Source of the DNA: a virus
DNA: 64,000 nt
IMG/VR virus record: IMGVR_UViG_3300020183_000013
Span: 1-64,000 of that record
Reading direction: 5' to 3' (one strand)
Of the stretch, positions 16,994-50,650 are shown piece after piece (positions within the stretch are counted from its first letter, which is position 1; each line of letters opens with the position of its first letter). The notes under the pieces were generated by a model, which searched no databases, was not told the DNA's origin, and saw nothing but the letters and a program-made list of their open reading frames with translations. Made by a program: the position numbers and the translations under genes.

Positions 16994-19060
16994 ATGGCAG
17001 TTAATAAGAATTTTGTCATTAAGCACGGTGTTGAAGTTTCTGATAATCTAATCTATGCCAATCCTGACGTTGATAGAGTTGGTATTGGAACCACTGTTTT
17101 AAATTACACTCTAGAAGTTAATGGTGGTATTGGTGCCACTAACTTAAATGTAAGTGGAATTGCAACAATTACAACATTAGTTGCAACTGCTTTAACAGTA
17201 TCAAGTTTGAATATTGGAGCAATTTCAAATCCAACCGTAGCATTTTCTACAGTCACTGCTACAAATGCAATTCCAACAAATCTAGATTTAACTAGTTCTA
17301 CAATTAGTATCGGTGGGACTGTAGGTTCTAATGGTCAGTATTTAATTTCAACTGGTTCTGGTGTTAACTGGATCTCAACTCCAACTGCAAGAACCTCTAC
17401 AACAATTATTGCAGCTCCAGCACAAACAAGCATTTCATATACTTACACAGTTGGACTAGTAGATGTTTATATCAATGGTGTTAAGTTAGCACCAACAGAA
17501 TTCACTGCAAACGATGGTGTATCAATTACGCTCAATCAAGCGTGTTTCGGTGGTGAATCTATTGAGGTTATTGCTTATGCAGTTTCTTCTCTTGGAGCTG
17601 GTACAAGTGGTATTCAAGGTATTACAATTCAAAATCAAGGTATCACAACTGGAACTCCACTGAGTATTACGTCTCTTAACTTCGTTGGTGCCTCTGTAAC
17701 TGCGATCAATAGTGGAGTTGGTGTTACTGTCTATATCTCAGATAATAACAATACAACTTATTCATCAAGTGCTGGTATAGCAACAGTTGCTCAAGATCTT
17801 ACAGGAACTCCAAATATTACTGTTGGAACCATAGATGGTTCTAGTCTAAACATATCTGGTCTTTCAACTTTCGCTGGTATCACCACAGTCACTGGAACAA
17901 CATTATTCTCCAAGCAACTGAATATTTCTGGTATTGCTACCGTCAGACAACTTTCTGACTATAAGGCACTTGTAGGTGCTGCAAGTTCTACAACAGAGAC
18001 ATTTGTCGTCACCGTTGCTTCAAAAACAGCAAACCATCGTTACTTTGGAACTGGTTCTGCTAGTGGATACTATATTGATGATAAAGAGTCTCCATTTATT
18101 ACATTGTTACCTGGAAAAACATATCGTTTTGACCAGGCAAATGCATCTAACGCCACTCATCAACTTAGGTTTTATCTAGAGGCAGATAAAACAACACAAT
18201 ACACGACAAATGTAACTTTTAACGGAACCGCTGGAAGTGCTGGTGCTTATACAGAAATTATTGTTACTGACACAACACCGATTGTTTTACATTATCAGTG
18301 TGTCAATCACGGTTATATGGGTAATTCGGTTCAAACGAATTCAAACTTCATCAATACTCCATATAGTATCAACACTATTGGTGGACTTTCAGTTTCTGGT
18401 GTCACAACCTCAGGCACACTCAATATTGGAACTGGTGGAACAGTTATTACCACAACTAGTGCTGGATTGGTTGGAATAGGAACCACAAACCCTGGTGAAA
18501 AATTGCAAGTTGATGGAAATATTAGAGTTGGTATTTCAACAACTTCAAATTATATTACATTCTATGGAACTTACAAAGACGGTCCATTAAATGTTGGTAC
18601 AGAACTTCCATATCAACACACTTATATTGGTGAAAGAATTTATGATTATTCTGGACCTGAAGCAGAAAGATCTGAACTATTACTATTCAAAGGAAACGAT
18701 ACTGCGGGAGTAGCAGGTCCAGATAGAATAAGATTATTTGCAGGAGAACATAGATTTGATGTTCTAGGTTTTAACACTACAGGTACTTTTGAGCAAGTTG
18801 GAGTATCAACTGCAGCAGTTAATAAATTAACGATTACTTCTACTGGTGTTGGTATTGGAACTACCAATGCAACGAGTGCCCTTACAGTAAAAGGAAATAC
18901 GTCTCTTGAAACGTTAAATGTTTCTGGTATTTCTACTTTTAGTGGAAATGTAAGAGTTGGCGTAGATACTTCATCTGGTGTCATTCTTACATCACCAAAT
19001 GGAACACAGTATCGTCTTATTGTTGATGACTCTGGTACTCTCAGCACTGTTGCTGTTTAA
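16994..19060 (+). CDS. Tail fibre protein with VDVYINGV domain and cupredoxin-like domain
   Basis: MAVNKNFVIKHG start, GIGTT repeats, HYQCVNHGYMG motif. Confidence 0.75.
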   Translation: MAVNKNFVIKHGVEVSDNLIYANPDVDRVGIGTTVLNYTLEVNGGIGATNLNVSGIATITTLVATALTVSSLNIGAISNPTVAFSTVTATNAIPTNLDLTSSTISIGGTVGSNGQYLISTGSGVNWISTPTARTSTTIIAAPAQTSISYTYTVGLVDVYINGVKLAPTEFTANDGVSITLNQACFGGESIEVIAYAVSSLGAGTSGIQGITIQNQGITTGTPLSITSLNFVGASVTAINSGVGVTVYISDNNNTTYSSSAGIATVAQDLTGTPNITVGTIDGSSLNISGLSTFAGITTVTGTTLFSKQLNISGIATVRQLSDYKALVGAASSTTETFVVTVASKTANHRYFGTGSASGYYIDDKESPFITLLPGKTYRFDQANASNATHQLRFYLEADKTTQYTTNVTFNGTAGSAGAYTEIIVTDTTPIVLHYQCVNHGYMGNSVQTNSNFINTPYSINTIGGLSVSGVTTSGTLNIGTGGTVITTTSAGLVGIGTTNPGEKLQVDGNIRVGISTTSNYITFYGTYKDGPLNVGTELPYQHTYIGERIYDYSGPEAERSELLLFKGNDTAGVAGPDRIRLFAGEHRFDVLGFNTTGTFEQVGVSTAAVNKLTITSTGVGIGTTNATSALTVKGNTSLETLNVSGISTFSGNVRVGVDTSSGVILTSPNGTQYRLIVDDSGTLSTVAV

Positions 19061-19085
19061 TAAATAAAAATATAAGGAGAAAGCA

Positions 19086-20660
19086 ATGAGTATCAGAAAT
19101 AGAGAACTATCACAATTTGGTTCTTTTATACACATTGATGATGATTCTCAGAGTATTGGAATTACTACTGAGGCCACTCCAAATGTTGGAATAGGAACAA
19201 CAGTTGCTACTCATAAGTTTACGGTAGTTGGTGAAACAAACTTCAATGGAAATGTTGGAGTAACAGGTATCATTACTGCAACCAATTTCTACGGAAATGG
19301 AGCAACATTAAGTGGTATTGTAGGAATTGCAACAGATGGTTGGGTTGTTAATGGTGCTGGAATCACCACAACTAGAAACGTTGGAATTGGAACTACAAAT
19401 GCAACGAGTGCATTAACAGTCACTGGAAATGGTTCATTTAGTGGTATCATCACAGCATCTAGATTTGTATCAACTGTATCTTCTGGAACTGCTCCACTTA
19501 CAGTATCATCAACAACTCTTGTCAATAATCTAAACGCAGATTTATTCCAAGGAAGAACTCCTCCTTCTGGCGGATTAGTTGGCGATACTGACTCCCAGAC
19601 TCTTACCAATAAGATATTTACTTCACCAAGAATTAATGGTATTGGCGCAAGTTTTGTAGGTTCATCATCTGGAAATACTATTCTTACAGCATCAGCAACA
19701 GCATCAGGTACACTCACTCTTCCTGCAGAAACAGGAACTCTTATCAGTACAGGAAGTGTGGGAGTTGTTACTGCTGGTTTGATTGCTGATGGAGCGATTA
19801 CAAATATTGATATTGCCGCCGCCGCTGGAATTACTTATGGTAAGTTAAGTTTAACAAATTCAATTGTTAATGCTGATATTGCAACTGGTGCAGCAATAAC
19901 TTATGGAAAATTAAGTCTTTCCAATTCACTTGTCAATGCTGATATTGCAACTGGTGCTGCAATTGACATTACAAAACTTTCAGCATCTACAATTTCAGGT
20001 ATTTCTCTGGGAAGTAATCTGAATACATTGACTTTTGGTACTTATTTAACTGGAACTTCATATAATGGCTCAGCGGCAGTTACAATTGCAACAAATGCTA
20101 CTAGCGCAAATACTGCATCAACTTTAGTTGCTCGTGATGCAAGTGGAAACTTTAGTGCTGGTACAATCACTGCAACTCTAACTGGCAATGCTTCCTCTGC
20201 AACTTCAGCATCATCAGCAGACCAAATCAAAACAACTACAAGATCAACTGCGGCTACTCATTACCTAACATTTGTCGATTCTGATAATGGAAGTGCAACG
20301 GCAGAAACACTTTACACTGATGCTGGAATTACGTACAATCCTTCAACAAATGACCTAACTGCATCAGGAAACGTTACAGCATATTCTGATGTTTCTTTAA
20401 AAGAAAACATTGAGACTATTTCAAATGCTCTTGAAATGGTGAATTCACTTCGTGGTGTTAGATTCAATCGTAAGGACTTGGAAGGAAATCCACTGCAAAT
20501 TGGTGTGGTTGCACAAGAGGTTGAAAAGATTGTCCCTGAGGTTGTGAAGACTGCAGATGATGGATTAAAATCCGTTGCATATGGTAACCTGATTGGAGTT
20601 CTGATTGAGGCAATTAAAGAACTCTCAGATAAGGTTGATAAATTGAGTGAAAATAGATAA
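19086..20660 (+). CDS. Tail fibre with C-terminal peptidase S74 intramolecular chaperone
   Basis: YSDVSLKENI..GVVAQEVE..VAYGNLIGVLIEAIKEL. Confidence 0.85.
   Translation: MSIRNRELSQFGSFIHIDDDSQSIGITTEATPNVGIGTTVATHKFTVVGETNFNGNVGVTGIITATNFYGNGATLSGIVGIATDGWVVNGAGITTTRNVGIGTTNATSALTVTGNGSFSGIITASRFVSTVSSGTAPLTVSSTTLVNNLNADLFQGRTPPSGGLVGDTDSQTLTNKIFTSPRINGIGASFVGSSSGNTILTASATASGTLTLPAETGTLISTGSVGVVTAGLIADGAITNIDIAAAAGITYGKLSLTNSIVNADIATGAAITYGKLSLSNSLVNADIATGAAIDITKLSASTISGISLGSNLNTLTFGTYLTGTSYNGSAAVTIATNATSANTASTLVARDASGNFSAGTITATLTGNASSATSASSADQIKTTTRSTAATHYLTFVDSDNGSATAETLYTDAGITYNPSTNDLTASGNVTAYSDVSLKENIETISNALEMVNSLRGVRFNRKDLEGNPLQIGVVAQEVEKIVPEVVKTADDGLKSVAYGNLIGVLIEAIKELSDKVDKLSENR
19800..19980 (+). 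repeat. Intragenic tandem 22-aa (66-bp) repeat
   Basis: ITYGKLSL(T/S)NS(I/L)VNADIATGAA, about 2.5 copies. Confidence 0.75.
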
Positions 20661-50177: not shown

Positions 50178-50182
50178 AAACA

Positions 50183-50650
50183 ATGGCAAATTTCGCAAAG
50201 ATAATCAACAATAATATAGTTGAAAGATTAGTTGCAGTATCTGACGACGAACTAATTGATGAAAATGGACAAGAGAATGAAGTTCTTGGTATTGCATTTT
50301 TGAAAGAACTTTTTGGGTATGATACTGAATGGGTTCAAACTTCTTATAATAATAATTTTAGAAGCAAGTTTGCTTGTATTGGAGATACTTATGATAGAAC
50401 TAGAGATGCATTTATATCACCAAAACCAGAAACTAATCCTTCATGGGTGTTAAATGAACAATCCCTAAGATGGGAACCACCCATTCCTATTCCAGTTGAA
50501 GAAGGATTCTATTTCTTATGGAATGAAGAAACTCAAACATGGAATAAATATTCAATTCCAGAACCAGGTCCAATAACACAAACTTTTGAATGGGATGAAG
50601 TAAATCAAGTATTAATTGTGAGAGATATCGATGAAGAAACTACTACGTAA
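50183..50650 (+). CDS. Adhesin-associated protein (MAHFA family)
   Basis: WVQTSYNNNFR..WEPPIP. Confidence 0.6.
   Translation: MANFAKIINNNIVERLVAVSDDELIDENGQENEVLGIAFLKELFGYDTEWVQTSYNNNFRSKFACIGDTYDRTRDAFISPKPETNPSWVLNEQSLRWEPPIPIPVEEGFYFLWNEETQTWNKYSIPEPGPITQTFEWDEVNQVLIVRDIDEETTT

Follow-up and report, generated by a model that had tools for sequence, protein, structure and literature searches.

An expanded fibre gene array with candidate branching connectors in an uncultured T4-like cyanomyovirus

The principle of joining phage fibres through an XD socket and a conserved N-terminal segment is already known from enterobacterial phages. Further trimeric tail proteins bind to the XD2 and XD3 domains of TSP4 and gp10 (PMC8825819), and in KP32-type phages of Klebsiella, where the logic of socket and N-terminal peptide has been validated experimentally, a T4gp10-like branching domain and an N-terminal peptide of 29 residues form an obligatory pair (PMC13352976). 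For the jumbo Klebsiella phages phiKp24 and RaK2/phiK64-1, many receptor-binding proteins (RBPs) on a multi-level branched fibre have been described (PMC9700779, PMC10253068). Among cultured phages of Synechococcus, 'Bellamy has branched fibers' by electron microscopy (EM; Hua et al., PMC5646251). The subject of this report is an array of fibre and Gly-rich protein genes at positions 14597-50650 of a stretch of 64,000 nucleotides (the window), which is the start of a viral contig of 137.6 kb (IMGVR_UViG_3300020183_000013), that appears to encode an unusually large multi-RBP system with parts of the branching kind.

A protein upstream in the window, a 1966-aa fibre (8700-14600), has matches in 461 phage records, all titled Synechococcus, Prochlorococcus, Cyanophage or Marine virus, the best of which (SynMITS9220M01, S-SM2 and Bellamy) are 52-55% identical over 100% of its length. 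The genes upstream of this fibre match baseplate-hub PHROGs, and the isolates have the same neighbour genes; these matches assign the source phage, on sequence grounds, to the T4-like cyanomyoviruses (Kyanoviridae) as an uncultured member. There are ~35 co-directional genes in the ~36 kb of the array (here named by their first nucleotide in the window), with all sizeable open reading frames (ORFs) on the + strand, including 15 fibrous proteins, 5 Gly-rich proteins, two small adaptors, several accessory proteins of 86-155 aa and chaperone-like genes, as well as one 2OG-Fe(II) oxygenase gene and a neighbour gene. The equivalent slot occupies ~11 kb in SynMITS9220M01, ~14 kb in S-SM2 and ~25 kb in Bellamy. 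A first-pass annotation, which had begun the array at 16994 rather than at 14597, read it as a deep tree of sockets and plugs; its observations were partly confirmed and its interpretation is partly supported. All of the ORFs that it named are present on the + strand at the starts assigned to them, and the N-termini and C-terminal tails that it quoted were confirmed as read.

We consider it rather probable that 14597-50650 is an expanded host-recognition array, encoding a multi-RBP apparatus built from a few exchangeable connectors. The apparatus would probably present many receptor-binding tips, on fibres that branch: a multi-RBP system of branched type appears to be real, with an exact wiring that is largely putative. 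Its closest known counterparts are the branched complexes of CBA120 (Kuttervirus; TSP1-4) and G7C (gp66/gp63.1), through XD2/XD3 beta-jellyroll domains that match by both profile and fold; unlike those phages, the window derives from a T4-like cyanophage whose fibres have S74, G2 and C1q ends and are not tailspikes, and it has five XD copies over four fibres plus a baseplate protein, together with extra types of connector whose contacts we infer. The likeness to the dual-RBP systems of the Klebsiella phages KP32/K11/KP34 lies in the best profile match, a K1 depolymerase (9k4a) with two tandem XD domains, but those systems have two RBPs on one level, compared with ~15 fibrous proteins here. The phages phiKp24 and RaK2/phiK64-1 are unrelated, have depolymerase tips and are likened to this one by description only. 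With the T4 gp10-gp11-gp12 baseplate the array would share the XD fold and its docking role, and XD-like domains are found in a gp7-like baseplate protein here, at residues 3230-3661 of its 4099 aa.

Bellamy has the same gene grammar as the window, with a hub, three stubs and four classes of tail, adaptor and Gly-rich protein; its array is shorter, and no tail-less fibre ending in G2 or C1q was found in the 50 kb covered. Given the EM of Bellamy and this common grammar, branching has already been observed in this phage group, and since Bellamy is in culture the question is directly testable there. Its branched fibres are described on both baseplate and head: a fibre-like cluster on the head vertex opposite the tail resembles the baseplate cluster (PMC5646251), and attachment of some array products elsewhere than on the tail is therefore possible. 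The accessible part of the description gives no gene-to-branch assignment. In a literature search that left most subscription journals outside, no link of cyanomyovirus fibres to gp10-like or branching domains was found, nor any description of the layout of a hub plus three fibres or of the connector of tail, jelly-roll adaptor and Gly-rich protein.

XD domains of fibres and baseplate

The array was compared with 1131 ORFs from 80 related IMG/VR loci (L001 and others) and with the ORFs of the contig itself. By iterated hidden Markov models (HMMs), the module called A in the first-pass annotation is present in 16994, 29987 and 43902, and its module B in 38383 and 43902. These are exactly the proteins that had been named, and loose cores of the motifs also find them ([VI]DVY[IL]NG occurs in 16994, 29987 and 43902 only), although the strict expressions for A and B match nothing because their spacing is off by one or two residues. 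The division into two modules did not survive, as the A and B models overlap and 38 examples align jointly as a single family of ~70 residues. Two more B-type copies lie outside the window, in the 4099-aa gp7-like baseplate protein (82940-95239) at aa 3230-3294 and 3599-3661 (iterated HMM 6e-15 and 1.6e-11; weaker with the combined profile, i-E 2e-4 and 0.08). Module B thus occurs four times in the contig, and a matching of two B modules with two plugs fails genome-wide. An XD match is present in the gp7-like ORF of all three isolate genomes searched (SynMITS9220M01, S-SM2 and Bellamy), which suggests a conserved docking platform of the baseplate, and this pair may be the primary platform in place of T4 gp10.

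Among solved structures, the A1 family profile matches the Klebsiella K1 depolymerase 9k4a (E 2e-15), CBA120 TSP4-N (7rej aa 204-255, 1.3e-6) and T4-type gp10 (9f4a, 0.014); it also matches the fibre of the cyanopodovirus P-SCSP1u (5.5e-7). The predicted structure of an XD copy of 43902 (pLDDT 93.7) resembles CBA120 TSP4 (7rfv; Foldseek TMq 0.74, rmsd 1.5 A over 68 columns), the gp10 chain 9f4b_FA (TMq 0.74) and T7 gp17-N (TMq 0.65). The E values from Foldseek are modest (2e-3 to 7e-3 for XD2/XD3-type matches, up to 1e-1 overall) because the domain is so small. By profile and model, modules A and B are homologues of the T4 gp10-like XD2/XD3 branching domains of CBA120, G7C and KP32-type phages, which is the chief argument for their first reading as sockets of the branching type.

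Tails, jelly-roll adaptors and Gly-rich proteins

The class of the C-terminal tail of a fibre changes with the clade of the adaptor encoded next to it and with the N-terminus of the Gly-rich protein that comes after, and this appears to be the strongest evidence for docking in the array. There are 23 distinct homologues of the adaptors 30871 and 20704 in the 80 loci, and a fibre ORF ends 19-41 nt upstream of 21 of them. Adaptors of clade I (70-92% identity to 30871) follow the tail F[NT]ELDAALF[NS] in 8 of 8 cases and, equally often (8/8), precede a Gly-rich protein starting MG[AV]RS. Both clade-II adaptors follow the tail ...SLD[IV]T[SA]SLFI, the four of clade III have tails of their own (...WL[FY]G in three, ...DSSLF in one), and GKA.A....FG precedes five of the seven 20704-class adaptors that have an ORF close upstream. 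All 9/9 aligned proteins, including homologues of 29987, share an invariant clade-I tail despite their differing shafts, and the proteins that carry it have five different types of N-terminus. All four classes of tail, adaptor and Gly-rich protein recur in Bellamy. Thus the link from C-terminal tail through small adaptor to Gly-rich protein, proposed from the window, is borne out by class-by-class co-variation in 21 adjacent cases in the related loci and 4 in Bellamy.

The model of adaptor 30871 (AF2, pLDDT 78) is an eight-stranded jelly roll, for which Foldseek and VIA-align found generic jelly rolls only (best Z 10.4, the trimeric cement protein of phage KHP40). Its relatives form large viral clusters of ~1,000 members, all without names. 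Complex prediction with three copies of the C-terminal 63 residues of 29987 and three of 30871 scored 0.01 against a mark of 0.32, a control-free value that counts neither for nor against binding.

In fibres of the T2/S16 type, gp37 with its autocleaved chaperone is capped by the polyglycine adhesin gp38. An S74 fibre followed by a Gly-rich protein is found both here and in L001, where another S74 fibre directly precedes a Gly-rich protein of MVLP type; unlike in T2/S16, there is either a distinct jelly-roll adaptor or a DUF7936 protein between the two here. By this analogy the Gly-rich proteins are presumed to be receptor-binding adhesins, and they may be homologous to gp38, although a phmmer search of 49164 against PDB sequences returned no relevant match.

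A further class of tail was noted in L018 (9038-10821), L030 (4237-6037) and genes 29-30 of Bellamy, in proteins of 405-481 aa with an N-terminus like that of 16994 and the ending ...GVSLGL[AV]IALG[GA]. These proteins always precede a protein of ~180 aa starting MAE[AS]FSN, followed by an NGYIGR+XD fibre; 16994 of the window is without a tail of this type. An 85-aa ORF of L001 (16568-16825) combines an N-terminus of the 36680 type (MVSELRVNNIKNRSG) with the C-terminal end of a Gly-rich protein (...GGSGIVIVRRLV), and looks like a deletion remnant of a fibre and adhesin pair.

Anchors, hubs and the wiring of the array

Between the window and its close relative L001, identity is 80-100% over the first 40 residues of each fibre, whereas the distal parts of 25582, 26813, 33618 and 36680 are 15-41% identical. 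In the unit headed by hub 24931, the N-termini are 85-100% and the distal parts 19-53% identical; in that headed by 33171, the hub is 98% identical and the distal parts of the fibres 18-27%. The proteins 33171, 30871, 40558 and 40890 are 89-98% identical to those of L001 throughout. This pattern suggests that the N-terminal segments serve as conserved anchors and that the distal domains behind them can be exchanged, as had been proposed. The peptide MS.TK(L/V)Q, in particular, had been taken for a distinct plug, a distinction that is lost because its score with the class-II HMM is at the same non-significant level (E 0.06-0.9) as those of five other fibre N-termini.

A late-promoter-like ATAAATACCTAAAAA is present 18-28 nt 5' of most fibre genes and is missing before 21091, 22155, 22535, 31291, 33618, 34847, 40890, 47798, 49164 and 50183, so that each adhesin appears to be grouped in an operon with its adaptor. 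The canonical T4 late promoter TATAAATA has 2 matches and is not enriched. The 60 nt 5' of 36680 (36620-36679) and of 38383 (38323-38382), including the promoter-like ATAAATACCTAAAAA, are nearly identical, which would favour cassette exchange.

A hub with three or four fibres or stubs behind it, as in the units of 24931 and 33171 with three fibres each, recurs in L030, L007, G004 and Bellamy, and hubs of R..L type followed by fibres are also found in S-SM2 and Bellamy. In the related loci, XD-bearing adaptors of ~230 aa directly precede class-II fibres, starting MSAINVNSITGR or MSSLRVT, in seven of seven cases. An HMM of the C-terminal domain of these adaptors matches 24931 in its middle segment only, and the homology of the hub is therefore partial.

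The succession 38383>40079>20704>21091, part of the first-pass tree, gains support from two relatives. A record designated G004 has, contiguously, a MAINFP protein with an XD domain of type B, four stubs of 91-96 aa with hydrophobic tails (one ending ...GKVIGLYLIS), a 20704-like adaptor (52% identity) and a 22535-like protein. In L004 (18189-19571), just upstream of a MALNFP/XD-B protein, a 460-aa fusion joins an N-terminus like that of 40079 (BLAST 2.7e-7) to Gly_rich_2 (E 9e-6, above the cut-off), two parts for which the window has distinct genes. G004 belongs to a set of records (G001-G005) that are fragments of 16-36% estimated completeness; in the 35.7 kb covered by G001, a close relative, neither a MALNFP protein nor a 20704-like adaptor was found. 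A search for related loci with 38383 as query gave no confirmed relative, the relatives with MALNFP proteins having come from a separate genome search, and megablast of 29000-41000 against the phage collection gave no match.

The favoured reading starts from the observed domain identities, co-variation, gene orders and conservation of anchors, and would account for the array with four connectors. Each fibre would carry a conserved N-terminal anchor segment of ~30-40 residues; the XD2/XD3 beta-jellyroll domains of four fibres and of the gp7-like baseplate protein would be the likely trimeric docking platforms; the short hub proteins 24931 and 33171 would each serve the three fibres behind them; and a hydrophobic C-terminal tail of ~10 residues on a stub fibre would be joined by a jelly-roll adaptor of 120-135 aa to a Gly-rich protein, presumably an adhesin of the polyglycine type. 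From operons and conserved neighbourhoods, the wiring would be 24931 > {25582, 26813, 28178}, 33171 > {33618, 35125, 36680}, 29987 > 30871 > 31291, 38383 > 40079 > (20704) > 21091 and 43902 > {47798, 49164}, in a proposed tree of at least three to four levels with ~14-16 distinct distal domains. A more specific version, in which the tree has at least 4 levels and ~14-16 tips joined by three orthogonal connectors (XD domains, three-fibre hubs and the series of tail, jelly roll and polyglycine protein), can be put forward tentatively, with less than an even chance of being right. If it is true, marine myoviruses would widely share the connector of tail, adaptor and adhesin as a plug-and-play standard, and the branched fibres of Bellamy would be explained.

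The first-pass annotation had ordered six levels in one chain, 43902>29987>38383>40079>20704>21091, with module A binding R..L N-termini, B binding MS.TK(L/V)Q, a module C binding MALNFP, and one MVLP adhesin for each S74 fibre. Such a chain is very improbable, even though A and B are XD-type domains, 16994 adjoins 19086 and 38383 adjoins 40079, the last four links are backed by G004 and L004, and MALNFP is present in 4 of the 5 records having module C. Apart from the union of A and B in one family and the four occurrences of B, an XD protein precedes only 1 of 14 R..L proteins, and of the 11 R..L proteins of related loci, 4 are in loci without any XD domain. Module C is indeed confined to 29987 (PASPSNGDLFY occurs there only, a six-frame scan included) and is a conserved unit of ~45 residues, but it is unchanged in G001, the record in which no MALNFP protein was found. 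Both module C and MALNFP sit 10-15 residues before an XD domain and they align weakly with each other on an FP motif (hhalign E 0.0016, probability 16%); when the region holding module C was compared with the N-terminus of 38383 by pairwise BLAST, the match was misaligned and not significant. From this resemblance, module C and the MALNFP N-terminus may be homologous leaders, not partners. The two S74 fibres (19086 and 43902, PF13884) are as described, but both MVLP units are in operons behind 43902, and 19086 precedes 20704 and 21091. The upper part of the chain, 43902>29987>38383, is without support of the kind given by G004 and L004. Equal small counts (3=3, 2=2, 1=1) are readily reached by chance with hand-tuned motifs; the six-level order and the logic of counts should be dropped, and an operon-based wiring of three to four levels is the better hypothesis.

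Two other explanations dispense with a fixed tree. The fibres may attach singly to baseplate, neck or head, their shared parts reflecting duplication and recombination only; the extensive mosaicism fits such a flat arrangement, as do the giant baseplate proteins of the contig (4099 and 2530 aa), which provide many possible sites, the use of the XD fold as a plain anchor in T7 gp17-N, and the fibre clusters that Bellamy also has on its head. We regard it as unlikely, because proteins as short as the stubs (77-148 aa), with their conserved tail and the adaptor and adhesin behind them, are implausible as free-standing fibres, and the natural fusion of a stub with Gly_rich_2, the branched fibres of Bellamy by EM and the deep position of the XD pair of 43902 (aa 550-687), remote from its N-terminal anchor, also speak against it. 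Similar N-termini might instead compete for few sockets, such that virions carry stochastic subsets of the fibres and the population hedges its hosts. The three or four fibres with related N-termini behind each hub, the two MVLP units behind a single S74 fibre, the promoter-like site for each fibre gene and the near-identical stretches before 36680 and 38383 would all suit this repertoire of alternatives. Within a hub unit of the window the N-termini differ, however, and each has its conserved counterpart at the corresponding position in L001, so that distinct sites fit better than one shared site, and a repertoire is quite doubtful.

Several observations weigh against the favoured reading of a branched apparatus with exchangeable connectors. 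In related loci XD domains are often in tandem or directly behind the N-terminus of simple fibres, and the fold doubles as a plain N-terminal anchor, as in T7 gp17-N; an XD domain alone therefore does not establish a socket. Linkage in recombination cassettes, and not only binding, can make neighbouring genes co-vary. The adaptor 20704 is preceded in the window by an S74 fibre without the usual tail class, and G002 and G003 have MALNFP without a 20704-like adaptor, with the reverse in G005. The extreme C-terminal domain of the hubs shows no significant relationship to its counterpart in the XD-bearing adaptors, and a 'super-class' of eight class-II N-termini was dropped because 36680 alone was significant with the class-II HMM. 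The source contig and all of its metagenomic relatives are fragments, and every physical contact, stoichiometry and joint presence on one virion is something that we infer.

The most abundant phototrophs of the sea are under the control of cyanomyoviruses, some of which infect a very broad range of hosts. The accessible part of a paper on cyanomyovirus host range names a single predicted RBP (PMC12801897). A gene-level grammar of anchors, XD sockets, hubs and cassettes of tail, adaptor and adhesin, by which these phages would mount at least a dozen receptor-binding tips, would aid the prediction of host range from metagenomes, would account for the branched fibres of Bellamy, and would supply defined, testable connectors for the exchange of RBPs in marine phages.

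Gene content of the array

The features of the array are listed in the table. In related loci, homologues of 14597 come after the conserved fibre of 1966 aa; searches of PDB sequences by phmmer were unproductive for 14597 and 24931, as for 49164. Protein 16994 matches phrog_8215 (aa 1-45) and phrog_30742 (aa 307-517), and its shaft domain is common to 43902 (BLAST 1.4e-78). Residues 167-524 of 19086 are found with 95% identity at the truncated 5' end of L001. Pfam scores are above the cut-offs for Peptidase_S74 in 19086 and 43902 (56 and 65.3 bits vs 22), for the Peptidase_G2 autochaperones (PF11962) of 26813 and 28178 (7e-42 and 8e-41; 143.8 and 140.3 bits vs 25), and for Gly_rich_2 (PF21722) in 21091 and 49164 (41 and 36.2 bits); 31291 and 47798 have no Pfam match and are paralogues of 21091/49164 by BLAST only. 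C1q tips are present in 35125 and 36680 (Pfam 6.9e-8 and 1.2e-6), and 40079 ends in poly-Gly plus a hydrophobic tail.

Table. Features of the fibre gene array, by position in the window
Feature	Position	Strand	Evidence
787-aa Gly-rich protein at the head of the array, Ig-like repeats	14597..16960	+	Pfam PF12810 ALK_LTK_GRD E 1.2e-14
688-aa fibre, conserved N-terminus MAVNKNF, module A at aa 137-195 (nt 17402-17578)	16994..19060	+	XD HMM 2.1e-22
524-aa fibre, R..L-type N-terminus, C-terminal Peptidase_S74 intramolecular chaperone	19086..20660	+	PF13884 E 4.7e-15
Probable operon: 123-aa jelly-roll adaptor 20704, Gly_rich_2 protein 21091, accessory proteins 22155 and 22535	20704..23224	+	TAAATA upstream of 20704 only; 20704 adaptor alignment; PF21722 2.9e-10; phrog_7759
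2OG-Fe(II) oxygenase gene and neighbour	23280..24649	+	PF13640 4.7e-13
Hub unit 1: 209-aa R..L adaptor 24931, then fibres 25582, 26813 and 28178	24931..29965	+	Gene order
287-aa stub fibre: module C at aa 96-135, module A at aa 151-209 (nt 30437-30613), tail GFNELDAALFS	29987..30850	+	
135-aa jelly-roll adaptor 30871, Gly-rich protein 31291, accessory protein 32705	30871..33148	+	phrog_20100 6e-49
Hub unit 2: 144-aa adaptor 33171, then fibres 33618 (+34847), 35125 (+36390) and 36680 (+38093)	33171..38365	+	
540-aa MALNFP protein 38383, module B at aa 51-110 (nt 38533-38712), then 148-aa stub 40079	38383..40525	+	HMM 5.4e-25
LtfC-like small beta-sandwich protein 40558, 112-aa protein 40890, 778-aa fibre 41272	40558..43608	+	phrog_3304 2.2e-21; LtfC Pfam match 22 bits, under cut-off; 91-96% identity in L001
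1185-aa S74 fibre 43902 with tandem XD domains B (aa 550-609) and A (aa 624-687), nt 45549-45962; downstream, two units of DUF7936 and MVLP Gly-rich protein, then an accessory protein	43902..50650	+	Pfam: S74 5.9e-18; DUF7936 in 47456 and 48822 (1.2e-15, 5.7e-13); Gly_rich_2 8.6e-9

The oxygenase gene and its neighbour are kept at the same place in relatives (tblastn matches in L001, L004, L007, L019/L020, L027 and L032), and the virion proteome of S-SCSM2R is reported to include a prolyl-hydroxylase-like 2OG oxygenase (PMC12801897). Hydroxylation of the fibres by the enzyme embedded in the array is a possibility. Just 5' of the gene for the 1966-aa fibre, a protein encoded at 7978-8586 matches a PHROG of Mom-like DNA modification (phrog_1384, E 1.9e-32).

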